A stretch of 34,485 nt of DNA from an uncultured Eubacteriales bacterium (GCA_964499315.1 CAZCKQ010000001.1:1-34485), one strand, 5' to 3'; counted from the first letter of the stretch, positions 20,052 to 27,024 are shown. Made by a program: numbers and translations. The notes: generated from the letters alone by a model not told the origin.

Positions 20052-20459
20052 GTGGCATCGGAATTCTTCCTTGAAATCATTACGCCCGAAAGGAAATTCT
20101 TCGCCGGACAGGTCGGGATGGTCGTCCTCAAGACGCCCAACGGTGAAATGGGAATCCTTAAAGACCATCTCCCTATGGTTGTCGCCGTGTCGATAGGCCC
20201 CCTCAGGATGCTTGTCGACGGCGCATGGCAGCACGCGGTCGTGGGTGAAGGGTTTATGGAGATCACACATGATAAAACGACAATCATGGCGGATACCGCC
20301 GAATGGCCGCATGAAATCGATGAAAACAGGGCGCGCGCCGCTGCAGAAAGGGCAAAGGAAAGGCTGACCAGACAACTGAGCCATATAGAATATATGCGTT
20401 CTCAGGCAGCCCTGTCAAAAGCCCTTGCCCGGCTTAAAGTCAAGAGGGATTATAAATAG
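20052..20459 (+). CDS. atpC: F1 ATP synthase subunit epsilon
   Basis: 135 aa at the last operon position, with a typical beta-sandwich plus helical hairpin pattern. GTG start. Confidence 0.9.
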   Translation: MASEFFLEIITPERKFFAGQVGMVVLKTPNGEMGILKDHLPMVVAVSIGPLRMLVDGAWQHAVVGEGFMEITHDKTTIMADTAEWPHEIDENRARAAAERAKERLTRQLSHIEYMRSQAALSKALARLKVKRDYK

Positions 20460-21585
20460 GCGCTGTTTCTGAAAAGATGTATTCCTGGTTTGCGAAAACC
20501 AGTCTATCGCCGTCTTTTACCCTGTAACCCTTACCCTCTTCTATCCTTACTCCGTTCAACATTGTTCCGTTCAGCGAATCCAGGTCCTTTATGAGATAAC
20601 CCGTTTCATCCCTGAATAGCTCCGCATGACGGCGTCCGACGACATTGCAGTTGATCAATCCGTCAGCTTGACTTTTTGAGCGGCCGATAACGAACACAGG
20701 CTTGTCGATCTGGATTCTGCCGCTGCATGCATACGAGCCTACAGGTAAAAGAGCAGGCCCGACGTACCGCGAAGGAAAGGTAATGCTCTCCGTGTTGTTA
20801 ACCGTCTTCCTCCTCTCCGAAGCCGCCGCCGTCTTTTCAGGACCTGACCCCGCACCCGTCCTTACAAGTCCTGCCTCAAACCTTTTCAATATACTCCTGA
20901 GACGGCCCTTAAGCTTATTTCCATTATCCGCATTCACCGGTTCATATCCCGGAATGGCACCGCAATTATCCGCTGACAGGCTTTTGCCTGTCTCCCGGCC
21001 CTCAAACTGCTCCGACCATAACTCAAGCTCATTCATAAAAGCTTTTATATTGAACGTAGACGCCTGTATACTTCGGATAAGCCGATGCAGCATCCCGCTT
21101 TCATACAGTATGCGTCCGTCCCCGACAAAGGCCGCAAGGCTCACAAGTACATTGCGGAAGCAATCCTGGAACGATTCAACAAAAGGATTATCCGGGATGC
21201 AAATTAATAAAATATCGAATACTTCCGGTTTAATGAAAATATACTTATCGCTGATCAAAAAACAGCTCTGATCAATAAGGTAGCTGGACGAACGGATAAC
21301 AACACCGGCAATCTGCCTCATTATGCCGATAAAAAGCTTTGCGGATACAGCCTCGCGCTTGACAAACTCATTTAGGGACAACATGGACGAGACATTATAA
21401 TACAGCCTTGCATGTCCATCCTCATGCTTGACACTTAGTTGCGCAATCCCCTGTATTTCATTATGAAGCAGCATATTATACCGGTAATTGTCGCATGGAC
21501 TGCTACCGGCGTTGAAAACAACATACCTTGAACCGCTGATCTCTTTCAATTCCAATAATTCATCCATCTGCATTTTCTGCAGCAT
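20440..21585 (-). CDS. FHA-domain protein with a large uncharacterised N-terminal domain, last gene of the Tad-like operon
   Basis: C-terminal FHA: VFVIGRS...VVGRRHAELF...YLIKDLDSLNGTMLNG...DGDRLVF. I place the start at ATG 21585 (GGAAAGGGGG SD 6 nt upstream). The track start 21717 reads through the intergenic repeat. Confidence 0.8.
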   Translation of the reverse strand: MLQKMQMDELLELKEISGSRYVVFNAGSSPCDNYRYNMLLHNEIQGIAQLSVKHEDGHARLYYNVSSMLSLNEFVKREAVSAKLFIGIMRQIAGVVIRSSSYLIDQSCFLISDKYIFIKPEVFDILLICIPDNPFVESFQDCFRNVLVSLAAFVGDGRILYESGMLHRLIRSIQASTFNIKAFMNELELWSEQFEGRETGKSLSADNCGAIPGYEPVNADNGNKLKGRLRSILKRFEAGLVRTGAGSGPEKTAAASERRKTVNNTESITFPSRYVGPALLPVGSYACSGRIQIDKPVFVIGRSKSQADGLINCNVVGRRHAELFRDETGYLIKDLDSLNGTMLNGVRIEEGKGYRVKDGDRLVFANQEYIFSETAPIYNPS

Positions 21586-21605
21586 ACGAACCCCCTTTCC
21601 TATTA

Positions 21606-21702
21606 CTGACGCCGCAATCCAACGCGCAAAAGACGGAGCGTATATTGATACGTGAGCACTTTTGCGACCGATGGCTGACGCCGCAATCCGACGCTTATCA
21701 CC
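21606..21702. repeat. intergenic element copy 1: A box (21606-21625), hairpin module B (21625-21674), A box (21675-21694), tail ttatcacc
   Basis: Bases 21625-21702 are 70/78 identical to 21769-21846. The A box ctgacgccgcaatcc(a/g)acgc occurs three times (21606, 21675, 21819). Confidence 0.9.
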
Positions 21703-21727
21703 CCTTACATCCTCCACCGCTTTCCCC

Positions 21728-21855
21728 GCTGCAAACGGTCAGAAGCGAGGAGTGCAAGGAAGCCAAGGCGCAAAAACCGGAGCATATAAAGATATGTGAG
21801 GATTTTTGCGACCGATGGCTGACGCCGCAATCCGACGCTTATCACCGTTTGCAGC
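21728..21855. repeat. perfect 12-bp inverted repeat (gctgcaaacggt 21728-21739 / accgtttgcagc 21844-21855) enclosing copy 2
   Basis: The two arms are exact reverse complements, read directly from the sequence. The distal arm ends 1 nt from the flp stop codon (21856-21858). A further 5-bp pairing, aagcg 21743-21747 with cgctt 21836-21840, follows a 3x3 internal loop. Confidence 0.9.
21769..21846. repeat. intergenic element copy 2 (hairpin module B, A box, tail)
   Basis: See copy 1. Outer helix 21769-21776/21803-21810; inner hairpin 21783-21787/21792-21796. Confidence 0.9.
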
Positions 21856-22074
21856 CTAGTCGATGCGGTAGGAATCCCTAATCCCTCCGCTCCTGATATC
21901 CTTGCTTATGGAATCGTCTCCGAAGACGGTTTGCATTATGCTGACCGCGAATTTGATGACTGCGTCCCTGAATATCAAGGCTATTCCTACTAAGACCGCT
22001 ATGATCAGCACTATTTCCACGGTTCCGAATCCTTCTTCATCTTTTGCCAGGTCCTTTAATTCATTTAGCAACAT
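21856..22074 (-). CDS. flp: Flp-type (type IVb, class III signal) pilin, Gram-positive Flp1-like
   Basis: 72 aa, MLLNELKDLAKDEEG|FGTVEIVLIIAVLVGIALIF. A Gly is followed by Glu at +5 and a hydrophobic helix. AGGAGG SD. Lies directly after tadC. Confidence 0.75.
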   Translation of the reverse strand: MLLNELKDLAKDEEGFGTVEIVLIIAVLVGIALIFRDAVIKFAVSIMQTVFGDDSISKDIRSGGIRDSYRID

Positions 22075-22777
22075 TGAGGCCTCCTAATGAGAGTAATGCA
22101 GGTGATATGACCATCAGCATTATCCCTATGAAGATGAGAATCATGGGTATGAGCATTTTTGTCGAGGCTTCCTCTCCGAGCTTCCTTACGGTCGTTTTAC
22201 GCTTTTCCCAACACTCTGCGGCATGCAGCTTCAGGAGAGGGACAAGCTCGAAACTGCCTTTTTTCCTATATTGAATGATTATCGAGACAAACCTTGTTAT
22301 TTCACTTATCCTGCACCGCTTGGCGAAATCTTCAAATGCTTTCATATCCGGTTTGCCGGAGTCCATCTCAGATAGAGTTACACGAAGCTCTCTGTACAGA
22401 AAGCGGTCGGCGGGACCTTCCGAGGCGACACGTCTCCATGCTCTTGTCAGGCTCATTCCCGTACTTGCAAGCAGACCGAGTTTTGTTATGAATGCGGGAA
22501 AATCAATCATGATTTGCTGCTTTCTGGCCTTTACCATCTTATTCAGCCTGTAATCGGGCAGATATGACATGATCGCCGGAAAACCCGCGGCAAATATTGC
22601 GCTTAACAAATCGGGGCCTGCCGCTGTCAGGACAATGACTGAAAAAACTCCTGAAACCGCACCATAGGCGATCCTCCGCGCCAGATGCTTCTTCAGATAT
22701 TCCAACGAGCATGCGTGTCCATATATCTCCGCATACTTCTGCCTTGTCTTCATGGCATATAACGTGTCGTAATTCAT
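22061..22777 (-). CDS. tadC: TadC-like inner-membrane platform protein (T2SS-F domain)
   Basis: 238 aa with TM segments flanking a cytoplasmic helical domain. ATGA overlap with tadB. Position is downstream of cpaF-tadB. Confidence 0.8.
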   Translation of the reverse strand: MNYDTLYAMKTRQKYAEIYGHACSLEYLKKHLARRIAYGAVSGVFSVIVLTAAGPDLLSAIFAAGFPAIMSYLPDYRLNKMVKARKQQIMIDFPAFITKLGLLASTGMSLTRAWRRVASEGPADRFLYRELRVTLSEMDSGKPDMKAFEDFAKRCRISEITRFVSIIIQYRKKGSFELVPLLKLHAAECWEKRKTTVRKLGEEASTKMLIPMILIFIGIMLMVISPALLSLGGLNVAK

Positions 22778-23514
22778 ATGCGTATATCCATCAGCTTTCT
22801 TGATATGAAAAAAGCAGCGGTAAAAAGCAATAATGAAAAACTCGTAATTATCCGGCCCTGAATAGTTTGAAATAATGGCTCCATGAAATCCCCTGCCGCA
22901 AGAGTAAGCACTGCAACCAGAAAGACGGGCAGTACCGTAAGGAGTTTGTACTCGAGAGCCCTCTCAGCAAGCAAGACATCGATTTCCTGTGAGATCTCGA
23001 TCTTGTCGCTGATTAGTGAGACTGTATTTCTCAAGATATCCGGTATGTTGCTGCCGGCTCTCTTGCAAACCGATATGGTATCCGAAAGGCTTTTTATATC
23101 ATCGATTCCCGTCCTTTCCGCCAATTCTGTAAGGACACACTCTATCGGCTCATTCATCCTTATCCGGTTCACGATAGTTCTTACCTCTTTTATTATCTGG
23201 GTCTCAGGATTTCCATAAATTATCGAGAGGTCTTTCAGCGATTCACTAAATGCTGTTTCCAGAGGGTTGCCCGCCGAAACGGACGAAGAAAGCGAATAAA
23301 GAAGATCTTTGAACTGTATGGTCAACTCTTTCCGCTTCTGCTTGATTTTCTGCCTTTTCCTGACAACCGGATAAATCAGGCCTGGCAGTATTGCAATGAT
23401 GCATATAACAGCACTGTGATAAAAAACATAACATATTCCGGCGGAAACAAGCGTAGCTTTGATAAATTCCACCGTTTTCTCCGCAAACCGCGTTTTATAA
23501 ACCCTGTAATCCAT
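22774..23514 (-). CDS. tadB: TadB-like inner-membrane platform protein (T2SS-F domain)
   Basis: Start chosen at ATG 23514 (TGATG overlap with the tadA stop). The track start 23589 would overlap tadA by 76 nt. Confidence 0.8.
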   Translation of the reverse strand: MDYRVYKTRFAEKTVEFIKATLVSAGICYVFYHSAVICIIAILPGLIYPVVRKRQKIKQKRKELTIQFKDLLYSLSSSVSAGNPLETAFSESLKDLSIIYGNPETQIIKEVRTIVNRIRMNEPIECVLTELAERTGIDDIKSLSDTISVCKRAGSNIPDILRNTVSLISDKIEISQEIDVLLAERALEYKLLTVLPVFLVAVLTLAAGDFMEPLFQTIQGRIITSFSLLLFTAAFFISRKLMDIRI

Positions 23515-24773
23515 CAATTCGTACCCCTGTCTTGAAGTTGAATAGTCAAACCGGCCATTTGAAGCTTTTTTACCCTTGTGAGCGCACAACCGGTCCCGGC
23601 TAGTGTCCCGTTCACACCGGCAACCCCGGTATCCCCACTCTCGCGATAGACATAAAGAGGGTTCAATTCGATAGTTCCTTCCTTCAGACCGGCCACCTCC
23701 GTTATTTCAATAATTTTTCGGCTCCGGTCGCGCATCCTTGATATGAAGACGATAACCTCGACGGCAGATGATATATACTGCCTGACTGCTTGCAGCGGCA
23801 ACGGCGCAGCAGAAATCACCATAGTCTCCAGCCTGCTTAAAATATCGGCCGCGGAATTTGAGTGCCCCGTCGACATTGAACCGTCATGGCCGGTATTCAT
23901 GGCCTGAAGCATATCAAGCGCTTCAGGACCCCTTACTTCACCGACAATTATCCGTTCCGGCCTCATGCGCAGAGATGTCCTGATAAGGTCGCCTATTGTT
24001 ATCTTGCCTTTACCTTCATAATTTGCATTACGTGTCTCAAGCCTCACGATGTTTTGTATACAGTCAAGCCGGAGCTCGGCTGAGTCTTCAATAGTGACGA
24101 TCCTTTCTTCGGGAGGGATGCAGTTCGCAAGGCAATTCAGGAATGTAGTCTTCCCCGAACCCGTACCCCCGCAGATAAAGATATTGTACTTCGCACGCAC
24201 CAGCGTCTTAAGGAATTCCGCAGCCTCTGTACTGATAAAATCGAGAGACACAAGATCTTCCATATTCATCGGAGCTTCCGGAAACTTGCGGATTGTCAGG
24301 ATCGGTCCGTTAATCGCTACCGGCGGCAGGACGACATTTATCCGCGAACCATCCTCAAGCCGTGCATCCACTATAGGCGACGCTTCGCTGACCGACCTGT
24401 TCACTTTGGAAACAATGATCTGTATGATATCCTCAAGATTGCCTTCATCCGGAAAAGACATGTCTATACGCCTGATAAAACCGTTTTTTTCAATGAAGAT
24501 ATCTTTAAAACCGTTTACCATGATTTCGGTTATTTCGGCATCATCCATCAAAGGCTGCAGTATCCCCATACGTCTCATGGAATTGAATACTTTTCTGGAT
24601 ATATCGGATTTCTCATCCAGTGTCAGGCAATAACCGGCTGACTTTTCGATCACCACATCCTCAATCATCGAGATCAACGCGGGATCATTGATGTCATCCC
24701 CCATTTCCAGTCTGCCGCCGACAATAGACCTGATTTCCCTGACGATATTGTCTGTAGAAGACATTGCCGGCAT
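23514..24773 (-). CDS. tadA: CpaF/TadA secretion ATPase (VirB11/T2SS-E superfamily)
   Basis: Walker A GGTGSGKTT, Asp box RIVTIEDSAEL, Walker B PERIIVGEVRG and His box GHDGSMSTGHSNS. Start ATG 24773 has a GGGGAGG SD. ATG 24800 is the alternative. Confidence 0.92.
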   Translation of the reverse strand: MPAMSSTDNIVREIRSIVGGRLEMGDDINDPALISMIEDVVIEKSAGYCLTLDEKSDISRKVFNSMRRMGILQPLMDDAEITEIMVNGFKDIFIEKNGFIRRIDMSFPDEGNLEDIIQIIVSKVNRSVSEASPIVDARLEDGSRINVVLPPVAINGPILTIRKFPEAPMNMEDLVSLDFISTEAAEFLKTLVRAKYNIFICGGTGSGKTTFLNCLANCIPPEERIVTIEDSAELRLDCIQNIVRLETRNANYEGKGKITIGDLIRTSLRMRPERIIVGEVRGPEALDMLQAMNTGHDGSMSTGHSNSAADILSRLETMVISAAPLPLQAVRQYISSAVEVIVFISRMRDRSRKIIEITEVAGLKEGTIELNPLYVYRESGDTGVAGVNGTLAGTGCALTRVKKLQMAGLTIQLQDRGTN

Positions 24774-24777
24774 GGTT

Positions 24778-25902
24778 CTAAAACCTCCCCTGCCCTTCAT
24801 CCATTATAAGCTTGCAAATACGCCGGATGCCGCTGAGCATGCCATTGTCGGAAAAATCCCTGTCGGCAGTCATGCCTTTGGGACCAAGACCCGGGACATA
24901 TGGAATGACTTCATAGGCTCCGCATATTTCCGGCAGGACAAACCTGCTATCGGAATCACTTTGACCATATTTATTAATGATGAACTTCATTTTATCCATG
25001 ATGCGGAAATCATACCTTGATTCGGCTTTTTTTATTGAATCCAGCCATAAAGGTATCCTTACCTTATTTATTTCATCCTGTACGGTAATACTGAGCGTAC
25101 AATCGCAAAACGACATGATAACCGCATTTCTGAAGGTGAAGCCCGACTGCGTATCGGCAACGGCAAAATCAAAAGACCCGGATTTTTTGATGCTTTTTAA
25201 CAGATGCTCCATACCTGCGGGATCCAGCTCTTCCATGTCCATATTGTTCTCAGCCGGCGAAAAATAACAGACGTCTGATTGGCAATCCTGCAGCGAATAT
25301 TTTTTCACACGTTCAGCAAGGTCCGCGGCGCCGCATTTAATACCCATTAACACATGTGTTATGCTGTTTTCCCCATTCACACGGAAAAAGGCGGGGGTTG
25401 ACGGCATGTTCTCCAGATTGATATACAGGACTTTTTTTCCGATATGTGTCAGATAGAGGCAGATACCCAGCGAAATGACTGTCTTCCCAACCCCTCCTGA
25501 AGGCGAGGCGACACAGAAGAAGCATGTTTGTCTCCGTATGTCGCCATCTGCCCGCTGATTATCCTCAAAAAAGCATTTTGCAATGATATCCTTGACCATC
25601 TGATCAGCCCGCCGGTATTTGTGTATTCTCAAAACATCATCAGTTATGGCAGCCCTCCCATCATCAAGCAATATACATATTGCGCCCATCGATTCCAGGC
25701 TGGACTTGAATTCATAGAATTCTTTGGATAAAATGAAAACATTTACAGGTCTATAATGGGTTGATACAAACAATTCAAGACTCTGCCTGCTGCTGAATGT
25801 CAGTATTTTATACTCGGTAAGTCCGCCTTCCATAAAGAAACCGGATAAGGCCTTAAGATATTCCTCTTCCGTATCGGCTATTGCTATCACTGCTTTTTGC
25901 AT
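24778..25902 (-). CDS. CpaE/TadZ-like protein: N-terminal pseudo-receiver plus ParA/MinD-type ATPase
   Basis: Deviant Walker A VASPSGGVGKT. The N-terminal roughly 120 aa have a CheY-like beta/alpha pattern, but Ser (VFILSKE) sits where the phospho-Asp is expected. Start ATG 25902 has a GAGAGGTG SD. Confidence 0.75.
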   Translation of the reverse strand: MQKAVIAIADTEEEYLKALSGFFMEGGLTEYKILTFSSRQSLELFVSTHYRPVNVFILSKEFYEFKSSLESMGAICILLDDGRAAITDDVLRIHKYRRADQMVKDIIAKCFFEDNQRADGDIRRQTCFFCVASPSGGVGKTVISLGICLYLTHIGKKVLYINLENMPSTPAFFRVNGENSITHVLMGIKCGAADLAERVKKYSLQDCQSDVCYFSPAENNMDMEELDPAGMEHLLKSIKKSGSFDFAVADTQSGFTFRNAVIMSFCDCTLSITVQDEINKVRIPLWLDSIKKAESRYDFRIMDKMKFIINKYGQSDSDSRFVLPEICGAYEVIPYVPGLGPKGMTADRDFSDNGMLSGIRRICKLIMDEGQGRF

Positions 25903-25943
25903 TAAAGCACCTCTCGAACTCACATGGTAAGCATTACCTGTCT

Positions 25944-25972
25944 ATTATACCATATATTGTAAACAATGTAAA
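25944..25972 (-). promoter_or_regulatory. sigma-A promoter of the Tad-like operon (TTTACA-17-TGgTATAAT)
   Basis: On the minus strand, -35 tttaca is at 25972-25967, the spacer is 17 nt, and the extended -10 tgg-tataat has its hexamer at 25949-25944. This lies about 40 nt upstream of ATG 25902. Confidence 0.5.
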
Positions 25973-26113
25973 TATGAAGAAGATTGATTGACACAATACA
26001 TTTTATATGATATTTTATATATAAACAAAATCTTAATAATTCCTAATGATAAAAATAATATGAACTGATTTCTCTGATTAAGTTAACTTTTAGGAACGAC
26101 AGGAGTGTATTAA

Positions 26114-26329
26114 ATGCACGATCTGAAATTTCTAACAGAGATATGTCTGAAGGAGCTGGCGAGATTGTACAGAAAGGGCGAAATAAGCCTTGACGAGTTC
26201 GACTCGCATAGCAGTCTGAAAATAGCCTTTCTAAAGGAAGCATATAAATCACTGATAATTAAAAATTTCAGCGGGAACCTTAAGAAGATTATTGATGAAA
26301 GCGACAAAATCATCCATCATAGACGATAA
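26114..26329 (+). CDS. hypothetical 71-aa helical protein
   Basis: AGGAG SD 9 nt upstream of the ATG. No family recognised. Confidence 0.5.
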   Translation: MHDLKFLTEICLKELARLYRKGEISLDEFDSHSSLKIAFLKEAYKSLIIKNFSGNLKKIIDESDKIIHHRR

Positions 26330-26349
26330 CCATATGAACTTTAATACAA

Positions 26350-26547
26350 TTATTTCTTGCCTTTTTTAGCGACTTGTTTCTTAAGCTCAAAATGTCTGGC
26401 GATTAGTGTATCCAACTTTTTGCTGATCTCCAATATAATAGTGCTGTTGACAGCATTTTTTGAACTCTTGCCAATCTTTTTATTCAATTTTTGCTTCAAC
26501 AAATCGATTTCGGCTTCTAGTCCTTTTATCTCTTCGCGCTTATTCAT
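26350..26547 (-). CDS. Spo0E-like aspartyl-phosphate phosphatase family protein
   Basis: 65 aa, two helices. IDLLKQKLNKKIG...IILEISKKLDTLIARH resembles the Spo0E pattern with an SxxLD core. AAGGA SD. Confidence 0.55.
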   Translation of the reverse strand: MNKREEIKGLEAEIDLLKQKLNKKIGKSSKNAVNSTIILEISKKLDTLIARHFELKKQVAKKGKK

Positions 26548-26636
26548 AAAGTCCTTAAATTAAAGTAGCAAGTATTTTACAAAATCAAACAAATTATCAC
26601 AAATACTCCCTTCGACAGTAATAATATAACAAAATC

Positions 26637-26667
26637 CATCATTCATCAACGACATAAGTCAATGATG
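26637..26667 (-). terminator. weak candidate intrinsic terminator after the membrane-protein gene
   Basis: 7-bp stem catcatt/aatgatg with a 17-nt loop. On the minus strand it is followed by GATTTTGTTATATT. The stem is AU-rich, so this is weak. Confidence 0.25.
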
Positions 26668-26679
26668 ACTAAAATGGCT

Positions 26680-27024
26680 TCAATAGACAGCATCAACAGG
26701 GATCGCTATTCCGCTCATGAACTGGCTAATTATATCCATTACAATGCTATAGAAAATGATGCCGGCTACCATACCCAATACAGCTAACACTATCCACGAG
26801 ATCAGGACACCCCTTGCATAATTCCTGGTATTCAAGTTTTTTGCCCCGCCAAAAGCCAGTATTATCAATACTACCAGATTCACAACCGGAACGCATTGCA
26901 GGATTTGAAGCCAAAATACTTTGGCGGTGCTCAGCGGCTTAGTATCGTATACGTTATAGGAAGGCTGCGGAGGTTGAAAATCATACTTCGGTTGATAATT
27001 TTCCTGATTGACCTGCTGTTCCAT
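26680..27024 (-). CDS. hypothetical membrane protein (Q/P/Y-rich N-terminus plus 2 TM)
   Basis: Start moved to ATG 27024 (AAGGGGA SD). Two clear hydrophobic helices. Confidence 0.6.
   Translation of the reverse strand: MEQQVNQENYQPKYDFQPPQPSYNVYDTKPLSTAKVFWLQILQCVPVVNLVVLIILAFGGAKNLNTRNYARGVLISWIVLAVLGMVAGIIFYSIVMDIISQFMSGIAIPVDAVY

Follow-up and report, generated by a model that had tools for sequence, protein, structure and literature searches.

A predicted monoderm Tad/Flp pilus operon closed by a DUF6382-FHA gene in a clostridial genome

Genes of the Tad/Flp operon

The DNA analysed here (the window) is the first 34,485 nucleotides (nt) of contig CAZCKQ010000001.1 in assembly GCA_964499315.1, from an uncultured Eubacteriales bacterium. 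Six intact open reading frames (ORFs) lie on its minus strand between positions 20440 and 25972. They resemble the genes of a Tad/Flp pilus machine, and the last of them encodes a protein that combines a DUF6382 domain with an FHA domain. Upstream of the first gene is a sigma-70-type promoter-like site (25972-25944, minus strand; TTTACA-17-TATAAT with TG before the -10 hexamer) which has 11 of 12 consensus matches and is among the two best such sites in 20200-26700. A first-pass annotation of the window had placed a strong promoter ahead of the tadZ-like gene, and this near-consensus site agrees with it.

The first gene (24778-25923) encodes a TadZ/CpaE-like hub protein of 381 amino acids (aa) with Pfam matches to CbiA (34.7 bits) and AAA_31 (33.8 bits). 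It has an N-terminal receiver-like domain followed by a ParA/MinD-type domain with the Walker A motif SGGVGKT, and both domains align with TadZ of Eubacterium rectale (PDB 3FKQ; E 9.5e-23, residues 10-325, 316 aligned). The source of that structure, reportedly described by Xu et al. in 2012, belongs to the Lachnospiraceae, the group that supplied most of the related loci considered below. The second gene (23514-24800) encodes a CpaF/TadA-type motor ATPase of 428 aa (T2SSE, 199.1 bits; cut-off 24.9). Its best NCBIfam match is the TadA-family model TIGR03819, with a score of 298.6 bits that is below the equivalog cut-off of 373, and its orthologues, at 55-63% identity, are found in 34 related genomes. 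Two platform proteins follow. The TadB-like one has an ORF of 271 aa (22774-23589; T2SSF, 27.5 bits, cut-off 25.2), for which the likely start is the ATG at 23514 that has one base in common with the cpaF stop codon; the TadC-like one has 238 aa (22061-22777) and scores 47.2 bits against the same family and cut-off. The tadZ-like gene overlaps cpaF by 23 nt, tadB overlaps tadC by 4 nt and tadC overlaps flp by 14 nt, so the genes from tadZ to flp overlap or abut as the first-pass annotation had claimed.

The fifth gene (21856-22074) encodes a Flp-type prepilin of 72 aa and is the sole match to Flp1_like (PF16982) over the family cut-off in the genome (52.7 bits; cut-off 33.5). The leader ends in KDEEG and the mature end is FGTVEIVLIIAVLVG (FGTVEIV), with Glu at +5 and Ile replacing Tyr at +6. 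A processing motif of the Flp G/XXXXEY type is thus present and cleavage is predicted; a variant without Tyr at +6 has been described among Gram-positive Flp-like pilins (Imam et al., PMC3244431). The last gene (20440-21585) encodes the DUF6382-FHA protein of 381 aa, which matches DUF6382 with 83.7 bits and FHA with 59.5 bits. It is preceded by a strong ribosome-binding site (RBS), GGAAAGGGGG, 5 nt upstream of the ATG.

No terminator-like site was found inside the operon. At its 3' end the FHA gene overlaps the convergent atpC by 20 bp (20440-20459), and no terminator-like site was found between these two genes either. The flanks are of a housekeeping kind, comprising the atp operon, a lipid kinase gene (family match) and two long ORFs that putatively encode ABC exporters. 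No ORF for a secretin, RcpC or TadD was seen in the operon. The secretin RcpA, RcpC/CpaB and TadD are parts of diderm systems and are not expected in a monoderm; monoderm versions of Tad include tad2003 of Bifidobacterium breve. Taken together, the T2SSE, two T2SSF, Flp1_like and TadZ matches in Pfam, NCBIfam and the PDB bear out the earlier description of the operon as Tad/Flp-type, and 20440-25972 is predicted from its gene content to be the core of a monoderm Tad/Flp (type IVc) pilus machine.

Spread over 341 contigs, the assembly totals 1.98 Mb and is 91% complete; contigs are cited here by number, and the window is the first 34.5 kb of the 53.9-kb C1. AtpD is 80-84% identical to proteins of an Acetivibrionales bacterium, Anaerobacterium chartisolvens and Acetivibrio (Hungateiclostridium) thermocellus. 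Among sporulation-type genes, a Spo0E-like gene lies nearby (Pfam) and putative spoIIIA-like ORFs can be read on C8. The host is a Clostridia bacterium, probably of the order Acetivibrionales.

Conservation of the DUF6382-FHA gene with tad genes

Gene neighbourhoods were compared in two samples. In the handles used below, G000 is the window's own genome, G001 and so on are related genomes, and L043 and so on are loci fetched by CpaF alignment. The first sample was of 41 genomes taken as relatives, nearly all from the same order, in which both DUF6382 and the CpaF orthologue were mapped. DUF6382 was found in 36 of the 41, usually as one copy per genome, and it is also single-copy in the window's genome. 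In 28 of those 36 relatives cpaF and the DUF6382 gene share a contig and a strand, with the DUF6382 gene 1-8 kb downstream, and the spacing is short in many genomes of the order (G003, G014 and G029, for example). The two genes are on one contig but convergent in G015, and on different contigs in the other relatives that have both. G001, a 90%-complete assembly of the same genus as the host, gave no DUF6382 match.

The second sample came from an alignment of CpaF, which fetched 80 loci that were annotated with profiles and with BLAST queries built from the relatives. A set of 53 of these has CpaF at 48-58% identity and comes from Lachnospiraceae, Paenibacillus, Oscillibacter, Butyricicoccaceae, Clostridiaceae-type metagenome-assembled genomes and other Bacillota. 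Their typical order is [A24] TadZ CpaF TadB TadC Flp (TadE) DUF5702 (TadE-nuclease-like) A24 DUF6382-FHA, where A24 is the prepilin peptidase family. The DUF6382 gene is present in 37 of the 53, closing the locus. Most of the other 16 come to a contig end within 2-7 kb of cpaF on its downstream side, whereas L104 reaches about 10 kb beyond cpaF and has no DUF6382 gene. The six-gene order of the window recurs in L053 and L102. Among the more distant loci (L107-L132), which are mostly canonical Tad loci from other phyla, the DUF6382-FHA gene is absent from 25 of 26, and in L115 and L128 an FHA domain lies inside the ATPase ORF itself, like KilF of Myxococcus.

Where loci have been rearranged, the gene tends to remain beside Tad parts. 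The order in L065 is TadZ, DUF6382-FHA, PP2C, CpaF. G010 has an operon of TadZ, TadB, TadC, Flp and DUF6382-FHA, with cpaF and a peptidase gene elsewhere, and in G021 and G033 the DUF6382-FHA gene forms a pair with an A24 peptidase gene away from the main operon. G019 is a counter-example, where a peptidase gene closes the full operon and the DUF6382-FHA gene sits on a separate contig. A PP2C phosphatase gene directly follows the FHA gene in G017, G035, L064 and L065. Homologue searches by word index returned only two matches with the window's FHA protein alone and eight with an alignment, because this protein is very divergent.

The first-pass annotation had allowed that the FHA gene might prove not to be conserved together with tad genes. 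Given the synteny in the relatives and in the genomes named above, this concern falls away, and the FHA gene is a conserved last gene of these tad loci.

Structure of the DUF6382-FHA protein

The Pfam match to DUF6382 (PF19909; cut-off 26.7 bits) covers residues 19-147. An AlphaFold2 model of the whole protein, made with 38 homologues, is confident in two parts, residues 11-195 and the FHA domain, and has low confidence in the linker between them. The N-terminal 200 residues modelled alone reached a mean predicted local distance difference test (pLDDT) of 91.3 and a predicted TM-score (pTM) of 0.87. The modelled domain (residues ~11-195, encoded at 21001-21555 on the minus strand) consists of DUF6382 and a helical extension. 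A fold search with the whole protein returned FHA matches only, and the N-terminal domain was then searched separately. Against the PDB, Foldseek matched it to protein kinase domains with probability 1.00 and a query TM-score (TMq) of 0.5-0.65. The top match was the N-terminal domain of TraF from the pIP501 type IV secretion system (8CBA), and the best TM-scores, 0.61-0.65, were to the intracellular pseudokinase domain of Mycobacterium Rv3910/MviN (3OTV, TMq 0.65); the 50 fold matches listed did not include EssB. Among PDB sequences, a profile of the domain found nothing meaningful (best E 0.56).

Only Y63, L104 and P131 are nearly invariant in the domain. It has no conserved catalytic Lys, HRD Asp, Asn or DFG Asp, there being no invariant Lys, Asp or Asn at all. 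We call it pseudokinase-like because the modelled fold is that of a kinase without a conserved catalytic residue, and a pseudokinase is what the domain looks like and is presumed to be. The first-pass annotation had found nothing recognisable in this part of the protein; the Pfam match and the kinase-like model supersede that view. The family is large, as the profile of the domain matches about 9,900 clusters at 50% identity. For each of the 150 clusters listed, the match begins within the first 20 residues, and the proteins have 181-700 aa, most of them 300-600.

The FHA domain (residues ~292-372, encoded at 20470-20712, minus strand) matches PF00498 over residues 299-364 (cut-off 20.7 bits). 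Its model resembles known FHA structures, including the FHA domain of FhaA (3OUN), with E ~1e-7 and TM-scores to the target of 0.8-0.88. Four of the five phosphothreonine-pocket residues are kept, namely G301-R302, H320 and N339. Two co-varying pocket types can be distinguished among homologues, GR...G[K/R]xH in the window's order and GK...SRxH in the Lachnospiraceae type (Arg302 is encoded at 20680-20682). About 30 residues before the FHA core, the linker carries T265-E-S-I268 (20782-20793, minus strand), the window's form of a [D/E]-T-[V/I]-x-L motif that nearly all FHA-bearing homologues share. The Thr is present in 24/25 and 32/38 homologues, with Leu, Ile, Met or Val at +3 in most, and residues 251-270 have pLDDT values of 44-48. 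FHA domains usually prefer pT-x-x-[I/L/V], and the T-x-x-[I/L] linker motif is a candidate self-ligand.

Kinases, phosphatases and other FHA genes

Genome-wide profile searches for the families named in the first-pass annotation placed A24 peptidases on C8 and C17, TadE on C106, Flp only in the window, one kinase on C141, PP2C on C181 and further FHA genes on C181 and C307. The kinase region (C141:92-3021) encodes a Hanks-type Ser/Thr kinase of 559 aa with a C-terminal domain of about 280 aa, directly followed by a CpaF/VirB11-like ATPase gene. The kinase was considered as a kinase-ParA/TadZ fusion, and this was rejected as its C-terminal 282 residues have no TadZ similarity (BLASTP; hhalign probability 0.3%). 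The cluster at C181:228-4084 has family matches to two PP2C and two FHA proteins, and one of the PP2C proteins is putatively membrane-anchored. Of the two FHA proteins, one is putatively a trypsin-like protease that also has a transmembrane segment, and the other a membrane protein of the RDD type.

Pseudopilins and prepilin peptidases elsewhere in the genome

No A24 peptidase was found on C1. The sole matches in the genome are a gene adjoining aroE on C8 (C8:11872-12591) and one adjoining murA on C17 (C17:1489-2157). Related loci hold two kinds of short A24 peptidase and the C8 and C17 genes each resemble one kind. A regular-expression scan of C1 for prepilin-like N-termini left flp as the only credible prepilin, and a TadE match over the family cut-off occurs on C106 alone, with one weak match on C189. 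The A24 and TadE profile searches therefore confirm that no peptidase or pseudopilin gene is encoded in or near the locus, as had been noted at first reading.

Relatives with long loci carry three genes in the interval from flp to the FHA gene. The first encodes a TadE-like protein of ~220 aa, the second a protein of 700-1100 aa with a pilin-like N-terminus and a DUF5702 domain, and the third a protein of 330-430 aa with a TadE N-terminus and, in most of those tested, a C-terminal PF21111 domain. Homologues of this trio are found in the same order on C106, where the first is a TadE-like fragment, the second has DUF5702 and the third has TadE with PF21111. The operon had been called minimal in the first-pass annotation, a description that no longer holds in view of the C106 trio and the A24 genes on C8 and C17; judged from these homologues, the pilus system appears to be dispersed, and neither minimal nor self-sufficient at the locus. 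Precedents exist for a peptidase gene at a distance. The tadV peptidase of Bifidobacterium breve is reportedly encoded away from the tad operon, and Bdellovibrio PilD, encoded away from the tad genes, processes Flp1 (bioRxiv 2026.07.08.737194).

PF21111 is the CDI_toxin_EC869_like family, which is restriction-endonuclease-like. Of seven TadE-nuclease-like proteins, five score above its Pfam cut-off, and TadE-PF21111 genes are located at C106:2811-3875, L043:4978-6084, L046:3315-4544, L048:10840-12129 and L052:9836-11062. A nuclease-like domain on a minor pilin could serve in DNA binding or in contact-dependent antagonism.

The genome has other systems that must be kept in mind. A type IVa pilus locus on C14 likewise needs a peptidase, and a third CpaF/VirB11-like ATPase, of 419 aa, is encoded on C141. 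A second tad locus (C179:496-4140), of the more usual Clostridia kind, encodes a CpaF 47% identical to that of the window (ATPase family match); it putatively includes a CpaB-like gene, a gene for a receiver-domain TadZ and a tadB start cut by the contig end. Because the C14, C179 and C141 systems are also present, the C8 and C17 peptidases and the C106 pseudopilins can be assigned to the window's operon, rather than to the C179 locus, only by inference from homology.

The spacer between flp and the FHA gene

A spacer of 270 nt separates flp from the FHA gene (21586-21855, minus strand) and contains a long hairpin and a repeat that is present twice, the copies being 89% identical over 84 nt. 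Its RNA is predicted to fold into a 128-nt hairpin that begins at the flp stop codon, with a minimum free energy of -101.8 kcal/mol (z -2.07). No U-tract follows the hairpin, the spacer has no terminator-like and no promoter-like site, and Rfam gave no match in 20300-26700. Related repeat units are found elsewhere, two at the very end of C11 (C11:16653-16809) and a 24-nt core on C121 (C121:4025-4048). The first-pass annotation had described a structured spacer; the repeat within it belongs to a small dispersed family and is not peculiar to this locus. Short-layout relatives have 39-102 nt in place of this spacer (three loci with both ends read). The hairpin could, hypothetically, stabilise or attenuate the pilin transcript.

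Comparison with known systems

The operon has the same TadZ/CpaE, CpaF/TadA, TadB, TadC and short Flp with Glu at +5 as the canonical systems of Aggregatibacter (tad) and Caulobacter (cpa), and genes for TadE-like pseudopilins and for A24 peptidases exist elsewhere in the window's genome. It differs from them in a PF16982 pilin without Tyr at +6, in the pseudopilin set of its subtype (TadE-like, DUF5702, and TadE with a nuclease-like domain) and in the closing pseudokinase-FHA gene, which all but one of the distant loci lack.

DUF6382-FHA proteins have been catalogued as TseJ and TsfJ, predicted components of the type VII secretion system (T7SS) variants T7SSe and T7SSf (Garrett and Palmer 2024, PMC11217815). 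The architecture, a DUF6382 N-terminus and an FHA C-terminus, is the same as in the window protein and was thus already on record, although the published assignment is itself a prediction. TseJ resembles the window protein in being soluble, and TsfJ, with two transmembrane helices, resembles most Tad-linked homologues. Both TseJ/TsfJ and the window protein are encoded beside an envelope-spanning ATPase machine of Bacillota, but in the window the neighbours are tad genes, and neither WXG100 nor an EssC-type gene was found in the genome. The same paper reports Tad genes beside T7SSg/h in Acetivibrio and Paenibacillus, and neither assigns DUF6382 a kinase-like fold nor connects TseJ/TsfJ with Tad (PMC11217815).

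In EssB/YukC with EssC (T7SSb), and in MviN with FhaA, a catalytically dead domain of kinase fold works together with an FHA domain at a membrane machine. In the window protein, by contrast, the two domains are in one polypeptide. FHA proteins encoded with Tad-like genes have been proposed to signal assembly in the Kil system of Myxococcus xanthus (PMC8460266) and in Bdellovibrio (bioRxiv 2026.07.08.737194). Those bacteria are diderm predators, and their FHA domains form one protein with the ATPase (KilF) or belong to unrelated proteins, with no DUF6382. The type VI secretion system (T6SS) protein Fha1/TagH, with PpkA-PppA, offers an analogy, in that an FHA protein gates the assembly of a secretion machine via threonine phosphorylation. 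The window protein is not itself an Fha1/TagH (TIGR03354, 25.2 bits against a cut-off of 120.25) and its FHA domain has a different domain partner.

In the literature searched, DUF6382 is mentioned only by Garrett and Palmer (2024), no paper links DUF6382-FHA proteins to Tad, and DUF5702, PF19909, PF16982 and Flp1-like are without any paper. The statement in the first-pass annotation that FHA is not a described part of Tad loci can be kept for the DUF6382-FHA protein in that literature; for FHA proteins in general, the Myxococcus Kil and Bdellovibrio precedents run against it.

Proposed role and alternative explanations

We propose that the locus is a Tad operon and that the DUF6382-FHA protein belongs to its machine, and give these two points jointly a probability of roughly 0.7-0.8. 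By analogy, the protein would act as a cytoplasmic scaffold or adaptor of the pilus machine, with a flexible linker joining the pseudokinase-like domain to the FHA domain. The FHA domain would bind either phosphothreonine or a non-phosphorylated surface, and its target may be a machine component or the protein's own T-x-x-[I/L] linker motif. Such binding could couple pilus assembly or activity to Ser/Thr phosphorylation. The models for this are the EssB pseudokinase and EssC FHA domains of T7SSb, MviN with FhaA, the self-binding of GarA/OdhI, and Fha1 of the T6SS. Flp and the TadE-like proteins would be processed by the C8 or the C17 peptidase. That the adaptor acts in a phosphorylation-dependent manner we put at slightly under an even chance. 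More tentative still is a wider proposal, which we think possible rather than probable, that DUF6382-FHA proteins are portable adaptors tying Ser/Thr phosphorylation to Tad pili and to T7SSe/f, in which GarA/OdhI-like self-binding of the phosphorylated linker motif would release or engage the pseudokinase at the motor or platform. No experimental study of any member of the DUF6382-FHA family was found in the literature searched.

Several observations count against these proposals. The Ser that contacts the phosphate in canonical FHA domains is Gly317 (20635-20637) in the window protein and is Gly in 23 of 25 same-order relatives; Lachnospiraceae-type homologues keep the Ser (31/38), but their GR motif mostly has Lys in place of Arg. 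With its pocket altered in this way, the FHA domain may bind phosphothreonine weakly or not at all. The C141 kinase, the sole Hanks-type kinase found in the 91%-complete assembly, is unlinked to the tad locus, and the two PP2C genes and two further FHA genes on C181, with another FHA gene on C307, also tell against a phospho-switch at the pilus. In most homologues the two domains are separated by a hydrophobic hairpin; its absence from the window protein leaves the attachment of that protein to the machine unexplained. The FHA gene is split from flp by the 270-nt repeat-bearing spacer, and co-transcription is presumed. C1, C106, C8 and C17 are separate contigs of a 341-contig assembly and may lie at any distance from one another, and the cpaF orthologue of the genus-mate G001 (C91:1289-2539, 90% identity) has one in-frame TGA.

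The changes in the pocket, Ser to Gly in the window's lineage and Arg to Lys in the other, would suit a protein that works without phosphorylation, and the DUF6382-FHA protein may be a structural subunit, a stator or assembly scaffold whose FHA domain binds a non-phosphorylated surface of the machine or its own pseudokinase-like domain, as EssC does with EssB. The phospho-independent EssB-EssC pair is a direct precedent (PMC11217815). Kinase or phosphatase genes adjoin only a minority of the loci, the one Hanks kinase found is not linked, and the hairpin that anchors most homologues in the membrane is what a structural part might have. Against this, the pocket residues G, R (or K), H and N are strongly conserved, and so is a linker Thr that has a hydrophobic residue at +3. 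PP2C directly follows the FHA gene in several loci, and in T7SSe TseJ is always encoded with a kinase and a phosphatase (PMC11217815). A purely structural role is a possibility to be taken seriously, though we doubt it.

Two further explanations question the machine itself. The operon might be a decaying remnant that has lost its pseudopilins and peptidase and makes no pilus, as most related loci contain parts that this one lacks, insertion of a dispersed repeat has parted flp from the FHA gene, and the G001 orthologue of cpaF carries its TGA. We consider decay improbable: the six ORFs are intact with family scores over their cut-offs, the genes are tightly coupled behind a near-consensus promoter with a good RBS, the six-gene layout recurs in L053 and L102 and the short cpaF-DUF6382 spacing in many genomes of the order such as G003, G014 and G029, and intact homologues of the missing parts are found on C106, C8 and C17. 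The remaining explanation, which seems to us very improbable, is that the FHA gene is an unrelated Ser/Thr-signalling neighbour, or that the cluster is a conjugation or type VII secretion apparatus. The long spacer before the FHA gene could point to a mere neighbour, but the gene is syntenic with tad genes in several dozen genomes from several orders, even after rearrangement, and this genome has a single copy of DUF6382. Conjugation is suggested by the name of the best NCBIfam match of the ATPase, "TadA family conjugal transfer-associated ATPase"; this was rejected on the score of 298.6 against the NCBIfam cut-off of 373 and on the housekeeping flanks. Publication of DUF6382-FHA proteins as T7SSe/f parts (PMC11217815) would favour type VII secretion. 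Searches of the 91%-complete genome gave no WXG100 match, one FtsK_SpoIIIE match over the cut-off plus a weak one, and no multi-domain FtsK ATPase of the EssC kind. As there is no WXG100 and only one FtsK-type match over the cut-off, the DUF6382-FHA protein is not a T7SS part in this genome, and the type VII reading was set aside, the neighbours being tad and atp genes.

Significance for Gram-positive Tad pili

The locus is a member of an uncharacterised Gram-positive Tad subtype, whose signature accessory protein has been catalogued but not studied in a Tad context. It is also a warning against taking a "minimal" tad operon for a self-sufficient machine when the assembly is fragmented. Tad pili serve in adhesion and colonisation and, in some bacteria, in DNA uptake or predation, and to our knowledge almost nothing is known of their control in Gram-positive bacteria. 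If the proposed role is correct, the conserved pseudokinase-FHA subunit would provide a handle on pilus switching in Clostridia of the gut, rumen and digesters and in Paenibacillus, and the regulation of Tad pili would be linked to that of type VII secretion variants.

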